From positions 868,001 through 932,000 of the forward strand of contig CP120458.1 of NCBI GenBank assembly GCA_034226945.1: a stretch of DNA of 64,000 bases, in the 5' to 3' direction. Position 1 is the first letter of the stretch. Every line of letters begins with the position of its first letter. Positions 1,193-8,900 of the stretch are shown in pieces. Origin of the DNA: Picochlorum sp. SENEW3 (lineage: Eukaryota). Below the pieces are notes generated by a model. It had not been told where the DNA came from. It did not search any database and saw only the letters and a list, made by a program, of their open reading frames with translations. The position numbers and the translations under genes were made by a program.

Positions 1193-1660
1193 TCACAGCA
1201 GATGGTAGTCTGCATCACGAGGCATGTTGACATCAGGAATGGGAACAGTACTGTCAGTCTTTGGAACATGCCAACCCTCCTTCTCGAGTTTTTGCCGAAA
1301 CAGAGTTGGATACTTCCTCTCTTCTTCTGTCCTAGTATCTTCTATTCGCACAGGAGTGCCTGTCAACAACAGCGGCTCTCTGAAATTCTCATTCAACCAT
1401 GGTGTCGGTTCAAGCCTGTAATCAATAATCCTGCGCAATGCATCAGCCCCCATACTCGACGTGATCTCATACCGAATATCCTGGCACATACGAGCACATT
1501 TGTAACCCTTCACGGTACTCAAATCAATGTATTTTGTTTCCTGTCCAGATGCAATATGACGGAGCCAGAGATTGACGTCTGCAACACCAACAACATCTGC
1601 AACTCTCTCCTCAATCGCTCGAGACAATCTGAGCAACGTCGCTTGAGCATCTGGGGCTCT
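1193..1660 (-). pseudogene. Hypothetical protein fragment, apparently 5'-truncated or frameshifted
   Basis: 147-aa protein-like ORF opening at TTG with in-frame stops upstream; only ~100 bp separate it from the RRF stop. Confidence 0.35.
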
Positions 1661-1757
1661 TTAACACTCCTGCTACCATGGCTGAATAGCTTCTTCCAAG
1701 ATAAGGGAAAGTGCCTGGGCCATGAAAACTAACATGTATACATCGTACTTATTATTA

Positions 1758-2225
1758 CTATACTTTGGTCAGCTCATCAGATTTAGCCTTCGTCAACGCA
1801 TCAATCTGCTTGACGTAATCATCCGTGAGTTTCTGCACAATATCTTCCAAATTCTTCCTGCCATCCTCACCGATATCACCATCCTTTTCCAGTTTCTCAA
1901 TTGACTTCATGGCATCGCGTCTAATATTCCTCACGGCCACCTTTCCCTCCTCTCCCATCCTACTTGTCACTTTTGTCATCTCTTTACGGCGTTCAGCAGT
2001 GAGTGGAGGCACCTGGAGGCGAATGACCTTTCCATCATTGTTGGGGGTGAGATCCAGATCAGACCCCTGGATTGCCCTCTCGATGTCTGGAATGGCACTA
2101 ATATCGTATGGTTGAATGACAAGCAAAGAGGCCTCTGGTGTTGTCACATTGGCAATCTGCTGCAATGGGGTTGGTGCCCCATAGTACTCGACAACAATAC
2201 GATCCAGCATGGAAGGACTTGCCCT
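1758..2225 (-). pseudogene. frr: Ribosome recycling factor (plastid type), 5'-truncated
   Basis: RASPSMLDRIVVEYYGAPTPL...PNNDGKVIRL.VPPLTAERRKEM...KVAVRNIRRDAMK is the RRF signature. The N-terminal helix (..FNTIRTG) and a transit peptide are not found upstream. Confidence 0.85.
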
Positions 2226-2400
2226 GTTCAAAAGACGTCTGAGACGGTGCGAGAGGTGCGTTTCGGGGCGTGTCGCCCGTTGGTATTGAACTTCAAACTC
2301 TTGTGGAGTATTTTGACATTCCCCTACAAGTAAATTTTATATTGAAGGCAAATCAGTGCACGAATGCACTGTGATTGCACGACATACATGTATTTGTTTC
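2226..2400 (-). ncRNA. Putative Fanzor omegaRNA scaffold / element right end
   Basis: Lies directly 3' of the Fanzor-like stop. Hairpins: CAGTGCA-TTCG-TGCACTG (2354-2371), CTTGT.GGGG../..CTCCACAAG (2300-2330, extended by CTTCAA/TTGAAG) and GGGCG-ACA-CGCCC (2266-2278). The tract ends ...GACGTCTTTTGAAC at the RRF junction. Confidence 0.55.
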
Positions 2401-2589
2401 TTATTTCTTCATAGTTCTTGAGAATGTTCTAGGGCGATCCTCATACAGTGTCTTCCAGAGTAGCAAATTGAACATGTTGATTCCAGCATTCGTGTCCCTG
2501 TTCCAGGTTGTTCCAACACATGTGATGTTTCTGCAGCACTTCAACCTGAAAACACACCTATCCTTCATCTGATACATGAAATCTGTGTA
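2401..2589 (-). mobile_element. C-terminal remnant of a Fanzor/TnpB-family RNA-guided nuclease
   Basis: Manual translation: YTDFMYQMKDRCVFRLKCCRNITCVGTTWNRDTNAGINMFNLLLWKTLYEDRPRTFSRTMKK*. It shows zinc-finger Cys residues, the RuvC-III motif WNRDxNAxxNM and a terminal RPxxFxR. Only 58 aa from the first Met, so it is absent from the ORF track. Confidence 0.8.
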
Positions 2590-3334
2590 TCAATACACAG
2601 ATTTCCTCCTCCACAGTGAACGCAGCGTCTTCATCACCTGCTCGGACGATCCATCGCTCACTATGTAACCTACTCATCATCAACATGCATGTATGTTGCT
2701 CTCGAATGATCATGATCCATCTCGTCGGTATACGTATCGTATTCCGTGGCTACCTAGTCCCTGTGGAGGTACCAAGGCACGTACCCTCTTTTTCCATACA
2801 CATATGCCATTTTCCCAGATTTTTTACACAATATGCTAGTATAAGATTGCAATCGAGCCCCTAAACACACCGTTCGGCGTGCCTGGCGAGGCATCCCACA
2901 CGTGGAGGAAGCACAAGTAAAAATGGAACGATGGCTTATTGTACTCTGCATCATGGCAATCAAAACGACTGTGATTGCATAAATGTGGCCTCTCGGTGGC
3001 GTCATCCGACTCCATTGGTCGAATACCACAGATGACTTGTGGTCAGGAGAGCGATGTCATATCTCCGGTCGGCTGAATCCAAGGACCGGTCATCGAACAT
3101 GTTCTGTACAGAGCATCCCAAGCTGCCATATGGCCTGCATTGGACGACGGTACTCAAGTCAGAGTCGTCATGTGTATTCATGCGCTCACATGCGGGCATC
3201 GAACTCATTGTTAATGCTACATATACTGTTATTATTCTGAATTTGCGGGGTCACCCAAAAGCTATTTGTGTCCGTGTATACGGCACCCGTGCAGAGTCTC
3301 GTCTCGGAACGTGAACGAGGGTAGTGTGACGAGA

Positions 3335-4113
3335 ATGCTTGCGCTACTTGTAACACGTGCATTGCTGCCGAATGCTCGGGGTTTAGAGTGTTCTCCTACC
3401 CCGGAGGAGGTATGTGACATGTGCTTGCGTGTGTTGTACGGTAGGATGGGGTTTAGAAGTGGATATTGGGGATGCAGGAGGAACAGATGAACTCGGTTTT
3501 CGATGCTCTCTACGAGCATCTTCCTCGGAGACAGAGAGGATTTATTGAAGAACATACTAGTATGGGATTTGCAGGCTTCTTAGGTGTTTCATATGCGTTG
3601 AGCATGAAGATTAGCATTAAAGAGGATGAGCACCTCATGGTGCTTTTGTATGGGAATGTTGAGAGTAATTATAGTGGCATGGATAATGCGGATTATCTTT
3701 TGGAAGAGTACAAGGACGCCTGTGATACACAGCATGTTTCTGGTTTCATGTTGGATACGGAAACAATTATTCAAAACGTGACGGGTGATTACTTTGCATT
3801 GATTCATGACAGGGTGTCTGATAAGTTGATCATAATCAGAGGAGGGGCATCTTCGGATCTATCGATGAATCATTTATACTGGGGTACACATCGGGATACC
3901 AAAAATATCGTATTTGCCGATGATCAGGATCTCGTGTCGCGTCTCTGTGACCAGGTGCATGTGTTCCCCTTGCAGCACATGTGTGTCTTTTCCCCGGGCG
4001 AAGAATTGAAACAAGCATTGTTGGTCAAAAAGGCGGCATCGAAAAAGAAGATTAAATCAGGTCTTTTAAAAGTAGAAAGTGCGAACAATTGTATTGGTCT
4101 TTCACATCATTAG
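3335..4113 (+). CDS. Wali7/aluminium-induced/DUF3700-like Ntn-hydrolase-fold protein
   Basis: Exon 3335-3409, intron 3410-3456 (GT..AG), exon to 4113. Motifs GDYFALIHD..., LYWG....IVFADD......C....FP and C-terminal KVESAN. Confidence 0.6.
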
Positions 4114-4127
4114 ATAGATACATGGAG

Positions 4128-5660
4128 TTATTTTTGTAAAGATGAAGCAGCTTGTATTCCTGCAAGCCTCCCGCTGCACCATGCAAATAGGAAATTGAAT
4201 CCACCAATTCTACCGTGAATGTCACATAATTCTCCACAGATGAATAAATTCGGCATGATTGTGGACTCCATTGTCGTACAATCCAGTTCTGAGAGTGGCA
4301 CACCACCACCAGTAACCTCTGCCTTTGGATATCCCTCATCACCGGTGACCTGCAGAGGGTATTCTGTCACGTTTGTCAGAAGTTTGATACGCTCTTCTTT
4401 TTTCAATTCTGCAATGATTCTATCATCTGGTATACCAGATTCTTTGCATAAAGCCTTGCAAAGGCGAAGGGGTATGTTTGACCGACGTAGTAGTGAGGTC
4501 ACATGTGATTTTCCTGTCAAGCCAAACTGCCCTGGGTCTGACAATGCATCCTGTAACCTTGAAGAGGTCAGCTCTAGATCCCATGCCACGCGGAAATCGG
4601 GAAGGTTCCTTTGACCTCTGGAGGCTGCCATGGTGTACATGTGTGAAAGATCCAGAACTGATGGACCAGAAAATCCCCTGTGAGTGAAAAGAAACCCATG
4701 TCGTTTTGAATGCAAGGCCTTGATATTTTTCTTCTTCTTCTTTTTATTGGTAGTCGTCGTGCTTTTTTGTGCATTGTCTACTACCGCATCACCCAGAGTG
4801 GGTTTCACAGATAGATCCACTGATGTCAGTGAAACACCAGAGAGCTCTTCAGATGCCGGCAGAATACCTTTCAGTGGCGTCAATGCAGGATATGTACTGG
4901 ATACAGTATGTCCTAAGCTTTCTAAAATAGCATACCCCGTTCCAGTAGTTCCCAGATTGGGAAACGACTTGCCACCTGTTGCCATGATGACCCGCGAATG
5001 GGATACAGTGTCATTCGAACCGGAAAATCGACATAGCCACATGCAAGACACTTCATCCCAGGTGATCGACTCGAGATCATGGGAATATTGCAGCGTGACA
5101 TTGTTTGTATCCAAACAGCTTTGCAAGAGCCGATCTCTCACCTCTGCCCCTGAATTTGAAACAGGAAACACCTTGTTTGTTTCCTTCTCCACAGTCATCT
5201 CTATCCCTATCTCATTCTCCAACCAATGTCTACATTCTTCTAGGCTCCACTGCCCAAATATTGATCGTACACATCCGGGCTTTGCATCACAGAAGAAATC
5301 TTCCTCCAAGACAACATTCCCTGGCAAAATGTTACATCGAGTCCCTCCACTGATCTGAATCTTTTTACCGCTCTCATTCGTCTTCTCATACAAACAAACA
5401 CGAGCCCCTTGTGAAGCCGAGAAATACGCTGCTGTCAGTCCAGCGGCACCAGCCCCGAAAATGCCCACATCCTGGTGTTGTGTTGTTGCACTCACCCTGC
5501 CAGTGTGACCCCTTCTCCATGCAGATGGCCATCGATGGCATGACCGCAGATGTCGATACCTGCTACTAGGACAGCACAAGGCAGCCCTAATCGATTCAGA
5601 TGCTCTCTCAACCCCGAGGCAACGTTGGTCGTGGCATGTTGTTACAGCAGCATGCCCCAT
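4128..5660 (-). CDS. HI0933/YhiN-family flavoprotein (FAD/NAD(P) oxidoreductase)
   Basis: GAGAAGL, GKKIQISGGTRCN, ATGGKSFP..GTTGTGY, FTHRGFSGP, AEVTGGGV, GRIGGFNF. Confidence 0.92.
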   Translation of the reverse strand: MGHAAVTTCHDQRCLGVERASESIRAALCCPSSRYRHLRSCHRWPSAWRRGHTGRVSATTQHQDVGIFGAGAAGLTAAYFSASQGARVCLYEKTNESGKKIQISGGTRCNILPGNVVLEEDFFCDAKPGCVRSIFGQWSLEECRHWLENEIGIEMTVEKETNKVFPVSNSGAEVRDRLLQSCLDTNNVTLQYSHDLESITWDEVSCMWLCRFSGSNDTVSHSRVIMATGGKSFPNLGTTGTGYAILESLGHTVSSTYPALTPLKGILPASEELSGVSLTSVDLSVKPTLGDAVVDNAQKSTTTTNKKKKKKNIKALHSKRHGFLFTHRGFSGPSVLDLSHMYTMAASRGQRNLPDFRVAWDLELTSSRLQDALSDPGQFGLTGKSHVTSLLRRSNIPLRLCKALCKESGIPDDRIIAELKKEERIKLLTNVTEYPLQVTGDEGYPKAEVTGGGVPLSELDCTTMESTIMPNLFICGELCDIHGRIGGFNFLFAWCSGRLAGIQAASSLQK

Positions 5661-5949
5661 GAACTACGAATTCAATTGAACCAAATGGCGTTCATAGCAC
5701 GCTCCAAGCACTGCAAAGAAACCAATATTGTCTATCAAGGATCTCAGCTTGACACATTGCCACCTAATCAATCCCTGTGCTTGGAAATTCCGACAGGCAT
5801 GCTCCATTTTTCAAAGTACGGTCCGATACAAGCGTTGATGGGACACCTTCCATATACTTGGAGATCCCTTAATACCTCAGGGATATTTCACACGAGCTCC
5901 CCAACGTTGGATCCATAGTATATTTTTGTAAACATATACATGTCTCTCA

Positions 5950-8900
5950 ATGGAGGGGCAAGGTGATTGTCTTTTAACGGCCTCACTGTCCGTTGCGTAC
6001 AACGACTTGTCGGATGTCTGGGGTGATTTAAAAGATGTACGAGTTCATCTTTCGATAGTATGCTATTTGGATGACATGTATCACAATTGAACAATTACTG
6101 CAGGATCTGGACGCTGTGCTGCCTCTTGATCAAGTATTGCTGAAAAATAAAGTAGGAAATAGTACTCGAGTGAAACATGTGCCAGTCAGGTAGGGTGCTC
6201 TCACTCGTATGGTTGATTTCTTTGAATTTTCATACATATAATGTCTATATTTTGATTTCAGGGTACTATCAGCTTCATCACGGGCGATGCATGAGTTGGA
6301 GCAGCATAAAAAGTCGTCCATGGCGTGGTTCAGACTTCCCTTTGCAGAGCTCGTCTGCTTTTCATGCGAGGATTATGACGAATACAAGAGGAATTTCAGA
6401 CTACAGTTGAGGGCAATGGTTGATCAGGAGACCAGGCTTCCAACTGATCCGATTCCAATTTTTGTCTATGTCCAGCCAAAAACTGTACAAGACCCAAAAG
6501 GACCATTGCGTGTGATGGATGCTGCGACGAAAGAGTTGAGCGATCGAGCTTCTTCGTTTCAATCAGTTATTCATATGGTCGCAGGTGATACATCGGGGCG
6601 TGCTGCATTGTCGACATCGCTGAAAGAGGCTCTATTCTTGAGCATAGAGGCTCGGCGTGCAGCCTATCACAATGAGGCAAGTAGAATCATCTTGCGATTG
6701 ATTCGCGATATTACGTCTCCAGTGAAATCTGATATCACATTTTCAGATCTTTACTTGGTGAAGGATTCGTCTGCTGCGATGTTGGAAGCGGCTGGGTTGT
6801 ATCAAGATGCAGTGACAGAGTACACTGAGATGGAAGCAATGATTGAAGAAACGTTTGCCCGAGTGTTGAGTGAGAATCCCACGGAAGAGAAGGATGCATA
6901 TGCATATTTAGTGTGTAGTGATATTAACTTGCCGGAAGCTTCGCAGCTGTGGCAGAATTGGTTTGTGAATAGATCAATTGTATCAACTGCTCCTCGTGGT
7001 GTCAAGCCTGTGACAAAAGAAGGACGGGCTTTTATTGACCTTGTGGTTTTGCCGGCGATTAAAGCCAATGTGATTCGTAATTTGGTCAAAGATGTGAAGA
7101 TTGTGGCCGCTTTGAAGACATATGTGCAGTTTGTTGAGAGGCATAGGGATTTGCTCCAACGATTTGAAGATGTCAAGAGATGTCCCTCAAATGTCGCATC
7201 TTCTTGGACATTCTCAGCCTGTATTGGAATGGCAGTGCTTGTATGCTCTCCTTCTGTCAGAGAATGTGGTCGGGTCTTTTGGTCAAAGTCAATGGAGGAA
7301 GTGGAGATTCTGTCAAGGGGGTCGGAGGATGAGATGTTGACACTCAATATGGCCATGGTAAAGGCTCTGAGGAAGGAGGAGAGAGATACAAGTGCCCAAC
7401 TATTGGGTAAGATTTTGATTATTGCTCGAGAGAGTTTGAAGGCTATTGGGAACTCGGATGGGTTTAGTGCTCCAGAAATGACTGCATCGGTTGAAGAGCT
7501 CTCAAGGCAGTTGGACAAGGGCTTTGATGGCTCACCCATGTCAACGCCGCTGCCAACGGTGCAAACTCCATCGCTGATAAAGACTCCAACAGATTCCATC
7601 CGTATGACTCCTCAGAATAGTTTGGGTCCTAATGATATCCGACTGATGCACTTTGAAGAGAGCATGCATTTGACTCATGAGCACACAATATCCATGGACA
7701 ATATCGACTTGTCGTCCCAACTTGCAAATGTATCTGTCACTGATGTGCCGTCTGAACAAGGGAATAAACCAATACAATCAGAGATATCTCTTCATACTCG
7801 TGATATCAGTGACAGTGGATCCGGTGCATCAATGTCTCCGAGAGTAAAGCATGACTCGGACAAGGCCCTGTTTCAACAAGGTCAACAAGGTGATGCAAGG
7901 CCCAACCTATCTCTTTCTCTTTTACGGCTAGAGAAGGAAATACAAAAGCTTAAAAAGTTATCGTGCTTGTACATCTCGACCGACGAGTCAGCACAGTTGC
8001 AGGAAACATCATGGAAGCCTCAGTATTGGAGGCTCCAGGTGTGTCTGTCTAGTGCTCATGCGTTTCAAAATATGTGGAAGGCAATCACGGTTGCATGCAA
8101 AGAATTTTTCGATGTATGTGGGTGGGAAAGAAATTCGTGCCTTTTCAAACTAGAGCTCGCCGATATTGCATATTTGGAAGGAAATGTCGGGGCTGCCATG
8201 GAAATTTACACATTCATTGTTGCTGATTTGTTGCACTTGAAATGGCACACATTGTTAGTATCAATTTTGCAGCGCCTTGCACTTTGTCAAGTGAAGGAGA
8301 AATGCACAGGAGTGATTTGGTCTTGTTATTTGCTGATGAAAGCATGCAGGGAGTTGTCCGCAACCACTCAAGAGCTCCAAAAATACTCACAGATGTTTGC
8401 ATCATCAACATGTCTTGGCGAACCCGTTCTGCCCCAGCCTTGGATAGCAAATTTACCATCGTCTTGCATGATTATGAACCCCTTATTATCTGTCAGAGGC
8501 TGCACTGGTGTGTTCATGTACGACCTCTCCAGGAGGAAAGCCTCAAATGGCTGCATAAAAGCTCACGTTGGCGACTCCGTGGAGATTGCGGTAAGGTGCA
8601 CAAACAATCTCGGGATGCCCTTTTCTCTGGACAAGGTGAAAATATGCTTGACAAGACTTCAGGAAATGAGTGGTACGTTTTCGTCTTCTTTTGAAAGACA
8701 AGAATTCTAGATTGACAACAGTCTATTCACTTGTTGCCCTGCAGAGATTTCAGAGATGCCAGACAGATCGGTAGCGAGTCCATCACTCGACACGCCTGTA
8801 CTGTTAGGACACACAAGCCCGCTTGTTTCTCCAGCAAGCCCTTATCATGACTCTTGGCGCCCAAACGTAGTTTCTCATTGGCGTGATATTGATGAAATAG

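Follow-up and report, generated by a model that had tools for sequence, protein, structure and literature searches.

We analysed a stretch of 64,000 nucleotides (nt) from the green alga Picochlorum sp. SENEW3 (contig CP120458.1, positions 868,001 to 932,000, referred to here as the window; 45.6% G+C, zero N) and found on its minus strand the dead end of a gene for a Fanzor1, an RNA-guided nuclease, lying within the gene for ribosome recycling factor (RRF). The fragment at 2325-2577 (-) is a 5'-truncated 3' terminus of a Fanzor1 family: it keeps the last 58 of ~1010 codons (~6%), the stop codon and the 76 nt that follow, up to a boundary shared with related copies. It belongs to a 378-nt block that is present in one of two allelic forms, and conserved RRF codons are lost where the block stands. 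We consider it very probable that, as a whole, this is a dead Fanzor tail in a patchwork that replaced 142 nt of RRF and left an allele that is most likely null.

A short frame in the window ends a family of long Picochlorum proteins

The fragment is contained in a stop-to-stop frame of 62 amino acids (aa) at 2401..2589 on the minus strand, YTDFMYQMKDRCVFRLKCCRNITCVGTTWNRDTNAGINMFNLLLWKTLYEDRPRTFSRTMKK, which is followed by a TAA at 2403-2401. Sequence and coordinates of this frame agree exactly with those in a preliminary description of the same DNA, where it was read as the remnant of a TnpB/Fanzor nuclease. A phmmer search with the peptide against 5.8 billion proteins gave as its best match a protein of 1014 aa (P0001, E 2.9e-25), and tblastn of P0001 against the window aligned its residues 957-1014 with positions 2577-2404 at 86% identity (E 5e-26). 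The homologous part of the frame is its residues 5-62 (window 2577-2404), which excludes the four residues at its start and the preceding stop codon. All five scored candidates matched the peptide at the C-terminal end of the protein, with 72-89% identity, and over its last 58 residues it shares 83-89% identity with the C-termini of Picochlorum proteins of 987-1014 aa (E 2.9e-25 to 1.7e-18). Besides P0001, the relatives include P0003 (1012 aa), P0004 (987 aa), P0005 (913 aa) and P0002, a 201-aa open reading frame (ORF) in a transcript of a Picochlorum (MMETSP1161). Within the 64-kb window no second copy of the peptide or of its DNA was found.

An exhaustive HMMER scan of 1.84 billion representatives returned 12 proteins at E<=0.001. 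At least two of them (P0008 and P0009) resemble low-complexity chance matches, and the remainder, including P0007 (985 aa), P0013 (591 aa) and P0016 (628 aa), share a tail of the form C..C...WNRD.NA.iN....RP..F.R. Cluster look-up added P0141, a complete 1014-aa ORF in the transcriptome of Picochlorum oklahomense, together with P0006 and P0193, two "hypothetical proteins" of Picochlorum sp. SENEW3. The database entries of the family carry this same label and come without a precomputed Pfam domain. Many more full-length copies are found on contigs of 3.2-5.8 kb and of about 1 Mb, and in transcripts and contigs alike the full-length relatives are single open frames, i.e. the ORF is intron-less. 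Given that contigs with full-length copies mostly measure 3.2-5.8 kb and the ORF 3 kb, the element seems to carry little beyond the Fanzor ORF. The expectation, voiced in the preliminary description, that full-length copies might exist elsewhere in this genome or in its viruses was borne out for the alga, in that relatives of 913-1014 aa occur in Picochlorum; for viruses it found no support, a full-length alignment scan of viral contigs having yielded 123 pattern matches and 0 confirmed copies. The corresponding scan of metagenome contigs gave 71 pattern matches, of which 0 were confirmed.

Two further features of the family were observed. First, an internally deleted form recurs (P0002, P0193, P0006, P0192), occurring in the P. 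oklahomense transcriptome and the SENEW3 genome, which is without the ~90 residues that hold RuvC-II and may be a non-autonomous derivative that is still transcribed. Second, P0001 begins with a basic KKRKR cluster, which may act in nuclear localisation.

The full-length relatives are predicted Fanzor1 nucleases

Passages of Bao and Jurka (2013; PMC3627910) define the Fanzor/TnpB motif as D-X(125,275)-[TS][TS]-X-X-C4-X(5,50)-RD. P0001 carries its residues in GIDMG (D755), VDEHRSSMNCSGC (E946, S949-S950, C953 and C956), CCRNNTC (C970/971 and C976) and WNRD (R983-D984), all of them invariant in the five full-length sequences of alignment A1. The spacing in P0001 fits the motif as well: Asp and Ser-Ser are 193 residues apart, and the Arg-Asp follows the last Cys at a distance of 6. 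The RuvC-I Asp and the [TS][TS]-X-X-Cys element are present in the full-length relatives and belong to the part that is absent from the window fragment, and the C4 zinc finger of the relatives (C953, C956, C970/C971, C976) lies between RuvC-II and RuvC-III. In a second alignment (A4), W981, R983 and D984 are invariant in 16 of 16 sequences, and RPxxFxR is conserved within this clade.

The window fragment has retained the second Cys pair (CC..C; residues 18, 19 and 24 in the 62-aa frame), the NRD of RuvC-III, 6 residues past the last Cys and so within the 5-50 of the motif, and the C-terminal helix with the RPxxFxR word, as RPxxFSR. One nearly invariant Arg among the conserved columns of the alignment has given way to Gly (CVRTTW to CVGTTW). 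Since full-length relatives with the same tail carry the complete Fanzor/TnpB motif, the identification of the peptide as a TnpB/Fanzor remnant holds. The profile comparison that had been proposed as a check fell short of the threshold. Against Pfam, the peptide matched PF07282 (Cas12f1-like TNB) in the correct register, with residues 17-39 on profile positions 38-60 of 60, and with an E value of 0.09 and 13.4 bits stayed below the gathering cutoff of 26.3; in NCBIfam, the peptide and five neighbouring frames were without a match (six of six). Because its own Pfam match is sub-threshold, the peptide is assigned to Fanzor transitively, through its full-length relatives only.

Comparison with solved structures pointed to the same family. 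P0001 alone matched Guillardia theta Fanzor1 best in the PDB, with E 0.017. When the five-sequence profile from A1 was used instead, three matches were obtained at E<=1, the sole significant one being G. theta Fanzor1 (GtFz1, 9cer; E 6.1e-5) in an alignment that spans RuvC-II, the zinc finger and RuvC-III; the next PDB matches had E 0.26. We also built an AlphaFold2 model with a 16-sequence alignment, and the fold comparison concerns this model of P0001, not the window fragment. Foldseek against the PDB returned six matches at E<=0.001, all of them Fanzor1, and ranks 1-7 were all Fanzor1 (Parasitella PpFz, SpuFz and GtFz; E 4e-5 to 2.4e-3, probability 0.97-1.00), followed by CasPhi and Cas12f, with a mimivirus Fanzor2 at rank 12 and ISDra2 TnpB at rank 48. 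Among the predicted viral structures of BFVD there were 18 matches at E<=0.001, mostly giant-virus proteins; the best was a "transposase" of Tetraselmis virus 1 (1.5e-9), and ranks 14 and 16 were a nudivirus and a granulovirus protein. Language-model neighbour clusters, which we treat as leads only, had 20-62% of members with PF07282 and drew on Chlorophyta, Mucoromycota and Nucleocytoviricota.

Some of these measurements weigh against the assignment. PF07282 stayed below its gathering score in all five relatives scanned (14.1-23.4 vs 26.3 bits); the AlphaFold model is moderate, with a mean predicted local distance difference test score (pLDDT) of 63 and a predicted template-modelling score (pTM) of 0.47; and TM-scores to Fanzor structures are low, at 0.15-0.26. 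The PF07282 matches do lie in the correct stretch and register (profile positions 19-60 or 38-60 of 60), and the cutoff is one model's threshold, no defining biological feature. Residues 720-1010 of the model are mostly at pLDDT 70-90, and the TM-scores are low because only ~300 C-terminal residues superpose. Judged by motif, profile and modelled fold, the ~1000-aa proteins are of Fanzor1 type and predicted RNA-guided nucleases.

The window holds the 3' terminus of the element and nothing upstream of it

Run without filters against the 1856 window frames of >=20 aa, the A1 profile gave one match, at profile positions 932-989 of 989 (E 7e-30), and the next best frame had E 0.23. Likewise, tblastn with five relatives against the 64-kb window found nothing beyond 2577-2404, the next match (E 0.021) being unrelated. 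The window thus contains the last 58 codons of a Fanzor1-family ORF (2404..2577, minus strand) and its stop codon TAA (2401..2403, minus strand), which aligns with the stop codon of a metagenome copy, L002, described below. RuvC-I with its Asp, RuvC-II with its Glu, the first zinc-finger Cys pair and the whole REC/WED part are absent from the fragment, which therefore cannot be a nuclease.

We considered whether the fragment could be the last exon of an intact, intron-containing Fanzor gene with upstream exons elsewhere in the window. An acceptor-like TTTTCAG word at ~2553 would suit such a gene, as would the 5-10 exons of Chlamydomonas Fanzor1 genes mentioned in passages of PMC3627910. However, homology runs unbroken through this word (2577-2404), for which reason we rejected it as an intron acceptor; the full-length relatives are uninterrupted in transcripts and contigs; no further profile position is matched in 64 kb; and the DNA upstream consists of RRF exons, with an in-frame stop codon before the homology begins. 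The chance that the fragment is such an exon is negligible. A "TCASSTCG" word near position 2900, examined as a degenerate first half of the zinc finger, was also rejected, being part of the first RRF exon in its transit-peptide region.

The right end was located by comparison with other copies. A degenerate DNA pattern for the WNRDTNA...LLLWK motif, run on metagenome and viral contigs, found two metagenome loci (L001 and L002), both starting inside the ORF, and 0 viral loci. By blastn, window 2325-2570 corresponds to L001 327-99 at 86.6% identity and window 2325-2533 to L002 200-1 at 88.5% identity. All three sequences diverge right past ...TTTACTTGTA (CTTGTA, window 2325), beyond which L001 and L002 are unrelated to each other and to the window and have long open frames. 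By this comparison, position 2325 is the right end of the repeat, 76 nt past the stop codon. A GAAT(G/A) word follows 3-8 nt past CTTGTA in three of three copies, and because it is shared by them the true right end could be 2317. The 8 nt concerned, GGGGAATG (2317..2324, minus strand), would accordingly be filler at the junction or else the final bases of the right end, as judged from alignment A2 and from the boundary of an other-locus copy at 2316. In the L001 copy, at positions 1-330 of that contig, 10 nt around the stop codon are gone and the frame reads through.

The block stands where conserved codons of RRF are missing

RRF is an essential plastid translation factor. In the window, the frame at 1758-2336 (-) encodes it (PF01765, E 1.2e-61), with a Pfam match that begins at profile position 11 and with 96-98% identity to Picochlorum RRFs (up to 98% to SENEW3). 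These matches and those of the Fanzor fragment agree in assigning the window to Picochlorum. In all 11 aligned RRF homologues, ...MEKMEKSLDSVK(R/S)NF..VRTG precedes RASPSMLD, one gene model breaking off within it; in the window, the sequence before RASPSMLD is unrelated (alignment A3). Consistent with this, tblastn of the P. renovo RRF P0059 placed residues 10-31 at 2668-2603 and residues 53-190 at 2228-1761, and residues 32-52 had no counterpart in the window. The RRF domain, of which an N-terminal helix (...KRNFGTVRTGRA...) is part, is hence incomplete here, with 21 conserved residues missing, and the gene of this allele is interrupted.

Three parts of the gene can be recognised, all on the minus strand. 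The first exon, which encodes the transit-peptide region (MQSTISHRS...GKRG), occupies 2785..2951, as indicated by tblastn of P0033 (residues 1-76, from 2951) and by the P. renovo models, and would end at a GTACGT donor. A second exon at 2603..2668 encodes ...LHSERWIVRAGDEDAAFTVEEE (P0059 residues 10-31, 95% identity; alignment A3); its last 4 nt and the donor site appear to have been lost in the window haplotype. The main exon, identified by PF01765, runs from RASPSMLD to the stop codon at 1758..2225, and its first 63 nt (MEKMEKSLDSVKRNFGTVRTG) are missing. The upstream RRF frame meets a stop at 2558, and the downstream frame opens only past a stop at 2337-2339. As the window haplotype is without a donor site, an intron and 21 conserved codons, its RRF allele is most likely null. 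It weighs against this that the RRF exon downstream of the block is intact, with no stop codons and 96-98% identity, so that the allele may be very young or keep some use.

Public contigs contain two allelic forms

Public contigs from four sequencing runs, all of unknown library type, were aligned on window positions 1500-4300; low-cover stretches in the contigs of two samples, X6 and X8, were left uninterpreted. In X8, which is another organism's sample, a 716-nt contig joins 2225 to 2604 via 142 other letters and skips 378 nt (2226-2603). Sample X1 contains both forms: the window form in a contig of 2196-2657, with 0 differences and a depth of 60.5, and the other form as loose ends at 2225 and 2604. 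The shared flanking contig in X1 (1683-2225) has a depth of 122.8. From the depth of the window form, about half that of the shared flank, we infer that it represents one of two haplotypes, which suggests a diploid heterozygous for a 378-nt and a 142-nt form. The haplotype-specific 378-nt block (2226..2603, minus strand) is therefore delimited by the X8 contig, with its 142 letters instead, and by the two forms in X1.

The 142 letters appear to hold what the window lacks. Translated from the minus strand, the 30 letters behind 2225 give KRNFGTVRTG, the missing RRF sequence, in the frame of RASPSMLD, and the 30 letters before 2604 complete ...VEEE-T and continue into a donor-like GTGCGT word. 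Accordingly, the 142 nt would comprise the last 4 nt of one exon, ~75 nt of intron and, in a further 63 nt, the first 21 codons of the exon that follows. The sample with the window form also has an intact RRF allele, as does a related strain.

There are two reservations about these forms. The samples X1-X4 may be the window assembly's own and then give no independent proof of the window form, and of the 142 letters 30 + 30 are visible and the middle 82 are not, the split into exon and intron having been deduced from protein alignments. An artefact of assembly or of haplotype merging, with the block not truly in RRF, would draw on the first of these reservations, as well as on the fact that the element is repeated in the genome and that metagenome contigs break inside it (L001 and L002 start in the ORF). 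However, a single X1 contig crosses both junctions (2196-2657) without a difference, an X3 contig spans 2454-2632, and the depth of about half the shared flank is as expected for one of two haplotypes. We hold an artefact to be very unlikely and retain the reading of a haplotype-specific block.

Other contigs of X3 end loosely at 2556 and 2569, where other Fanzor copies run on upstream (minus strand); these ends encode ...CSCCMEGMKAG and ...PMNCSGCMEG, from the zinc-finger region. Small differences were seen as well. The X1 contig over 1683-2225 differs from the window at four positions (1755, 1785, 1792 and 1841) and the block contig is identical to it; the four are probably single-base haplotype differences collapsed in public contigs. 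In the region upstream of RRF, at 3099-3133, X1 and X8 contigs have 1, 3, 4 and 1 nt left out and 1 nt put in, besides substitutions, which makes this a second indel-rich spot between haplotypes or strains.

With the two forms established, another reading of the block can be weighed, namely that it is a domesticated micro-ORF (58 aa, MYQMKD...) for a small zinc-binding peptide, or else a new RRF intron. An ATG opens the homologous part, the frame is intact and its orientation is that of RRF. Against a micro-ORF, the block is present in one haplotype only, the nearly invariant Arg is replaced, and half a zinc finger alone cannot bind zinc; against a new intron, removal of the block still leaves RRF short of 21 conserved residues. 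We give either version next to no chance and keep to a dead fragment.

The block is a patchwork that joins the Fanzor tail to a copy of another locus

Read 5' to 3' on the minus strand, the block opens with a 26-nt palindromic filler; the Fanzor tail comes next, followed by 8 nt and by a 91-nt copy from another locus. The filler (2578..2603, minus strand) forms the junction on the 5' side of the relic, so that the left junction of the block is filler and no element end; the alternative form diverges at 2604/2603. In an inverted self-match of 2578-2605, 26 of 28 bases pair: together with the flank bases 2604-2605, the filler is a palindrome whose 13-nt arms (2593-2605 and 2578-2590) enclose a loop of 2 nt.

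At the other side, a patch copied from another locus occupies 2226..2316 (minus strand), as revealed by loose ends at 2220 and 2316 in X1, X6 and X8. The other-locus copy spans 2220-2316, has different flanks on both sides and differs from the window by one substitution and a 1-nt insertion (2270-2272); its source is known from 30-letter loose ends only. Six nt (2220-2225, AGGGCA on the minus strand) are common to the other locus and the RRF exon and constitute a junction microhomology. A second copy of the 2220-2316 patch was found neither in the window nor in L001 or L002, and by eye no target-site duplication was seen around the block.

Two routes to this structure were considered. In the first, which we rate at roughly an even chance, a break in RRF would have been repaired by microhomology-mediated templated synthesis, copying from a Fanzor element first and then from a second locus, with snap-back yielding the palindrome. 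Such templated repair is favoured by the net deletion of 142 nt, by the number of templates, of which there are at least two, by the palindrome in the filler and by the 6-nt microhomology. In the second, which we put forward more tentatively, an abortive 5'-truncated ("one-ended") insertion would have read through past the right end into the 3' flank of its donor; the Fanzor1-carrying CRe elements of Chlamydomonas offer a precedent, and the transcribed internally deleted derivatives of the family (P0002, P0193, P0006 and P0192) may be noted with this route. By either route, the product would be a relic. A point against the favoured account as a whole is that a left end, inverted repeats, a target-site duplication and a transposase of the element were never seen in the sequences compared.

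The segment past the stop codon is a candidate omega-RNA region

The 76 nt from the stop codon to the right end (2325..2400, minus strand), delimited by blastn against L001 and L002, are a candidate omega-RNA region. In passages of Saito et al. (2023; PMC10432273), the omega-RNA of Spizellomyces Fanzor1 is the region of ~80 nt that separates the stop codon from the right inverted repeat, and in that fungus "ghost" loci, which have no ORF, are reported to supply working guides. In the window, the segment includes a hairpin at 2354-2371 (-), 29 nt before the right end, with a perfect stem of 7 bp and a TTCG loop, which is present in both the minimum-free-energy and the centroid structure. In L001 and L002 this stem is imperfect, and two window-specific base changes make it perfect. 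The hairpin is a candidate for a transposon-end hairpin or for part of an omega-RNA. The predicted folding energy of the segment is no better than that of shuffled sequences (z +0.74; 151 of 200 shuffles were as stable or more so), none of 47 predicted pairs covaries among the three copies, and Rfam has no match for the segment at E<=1.

The relic might on this basis be a ghost guide locus, whose omega-RNA scaffold and flanking "guide" would be transcribed and would load full-length Fanzors made elsewhere. Its segment from stop codon to right end (76-84 nt) is akin in length to that of Spizellomyces, is 86-88% identical in the three copies and includes the perfect 7-bp/TTCG hairpin; the flank from 2316 downward has an unoccupied-looking second copy elsewhere that starts exactly at 2316; and full-length ORFs are expressed in the congener P. 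oklahomense. However, fold energy, covariation and Rfam give it no backing, the non-coding part is conserved no better than the coding part, and the hairpin is imperfect in L001 and L002. We regard a ghost locus as improbable. Slightly more doubtful still is the combined version, in which the block would be a right end plus its native guide/target flank, pasted into RRF during break repair, and still a ghost omega-RNA locus that directs the full-length, expressed Picochlorum Fanzor to cut the other site. If true, such a paste would document, as it happened in nature, homing driven by Fanzor and mis-repair in a diploid alga. The relic is better described as an ordinary dead transposon end of a previously undescribed Picochlorum Fanzor1 family.

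RRF gene models and neighbouring frames

Several public RRF models of Picochlorum sp. SENEW3 and relatives (P0033, P0080 and P0021) read through introns or skip 26-35 conserved residues in alignment A3. They look mis-spliced, and the true exons seem to be better represented by P0019 and P0059, from P. renovo. Divergent from the RRF gene, with ~500 nt between them, lies a 218-aa frame at 3457-4113 (+) (MQEEQM...) whose Pfam match to DUF3700 ("aluminium induced protein") is weak (E 2e-5, 24.6 bits, cutoff 27). Long uninterrupted frames follow at 4128-5663 (-), of 511 aa, and at 6242-8710 (+), of 822 aa, which fits a compact, intron-poor nuclear genome.

Discussion

Among characterised systems, the family is nearest to Fanzor1 of G. 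theta (GtFz1, 9cer), Spizellomyces punctatus (SpuFz1, 8gkh) and Parasitella parasitica (PpFz, 9cf1). Like these, the relatives have the D...[ST][ST]xxC4...RD motif, a RuvC fold that is split and holds an inserted zinc finger, and an N-terminal half that is long and helical, and they are present in many copies in the genome. They differ in size, at ~1000 aa compared with 600-730 residues in the solved chains, and are <20% identical to any of them; moreover, the Pfam TNB match stays below threshold in the relatives, and the window itself contains only 58 codons.

Fanzor1 has been described in green algae, namely Chlamydomonas, Volvox and Chlorella vulgaris, in passages of PMC3627910, and is also known in Chloropicon. 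A full-text search of the literature found no Fanzor report for Picochlorum in the article texts it covered; supplementary tables of Fanzor censuses may list some. A close parallel in a green algal host is provided by CRe-1/2/3 of Chlamydomonas reinhardtii, non-autonomous Helitron2 elements that carry Fanzor1. According to the same passages of PMC3627910, CRe copies are often 5'-truncated with intact 3' ends or internally deleted, for which the window relic and the shortened forms P0002, P0193, P0006 and P0192 are the counterparts here, and extra non-element DNA is reported at the junctions of some copies. Unlike the CRe genes, which have 5-10 exons in that account, the Picochlorum ORF is intron-less; the 3' hairpin of the element stands 29 nt before an end that reads ...CTTGTA. 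A Fanzor element of another trebouxiophyte with a small diploid genome, likened here by description only, also carries little beyond its ORF and has haplotype-polymorphic insertions. The ghost loci of Spizellomyces, as presented in passages of PMC10432273, resemble the relic in being ORF-less, with a segment of ~75-80 nt from stop codon to right end. They differ from it in being complete small elements with both inverted repeats, in 134 copies, whereas the relic is single, truncated and without a left end.

The findings are of interest at three levels. First, the relic leads to an unannotated, multi-copy Fanzor1 family of ~1000 aa in Picochlorum, a complete ORF of which is found among the transcripts of P. 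oklahomense. Picochlorum grows fast, tolerates salt and heat and is used in biotechnology, and a host-native RNA-guided nuclease could be of practical interest if it proves active. Second, the junction is a compact example of a complex insertion-deletion, in which a palindromic filler is combined with a second templated patch and with 6 nt of microhomology, built around a 5'-truncated, 3'-intact fragment of the shape typical of green-algal Fanzor1 carriers. Lastly, an insertion confined to one haplotype, with one RRF allele most likely knocked out, suggests that the family, or the repair processes that copy it, acted recently, and this haplotype-specific disruption of RRF shows how diploidy shelters such hits.

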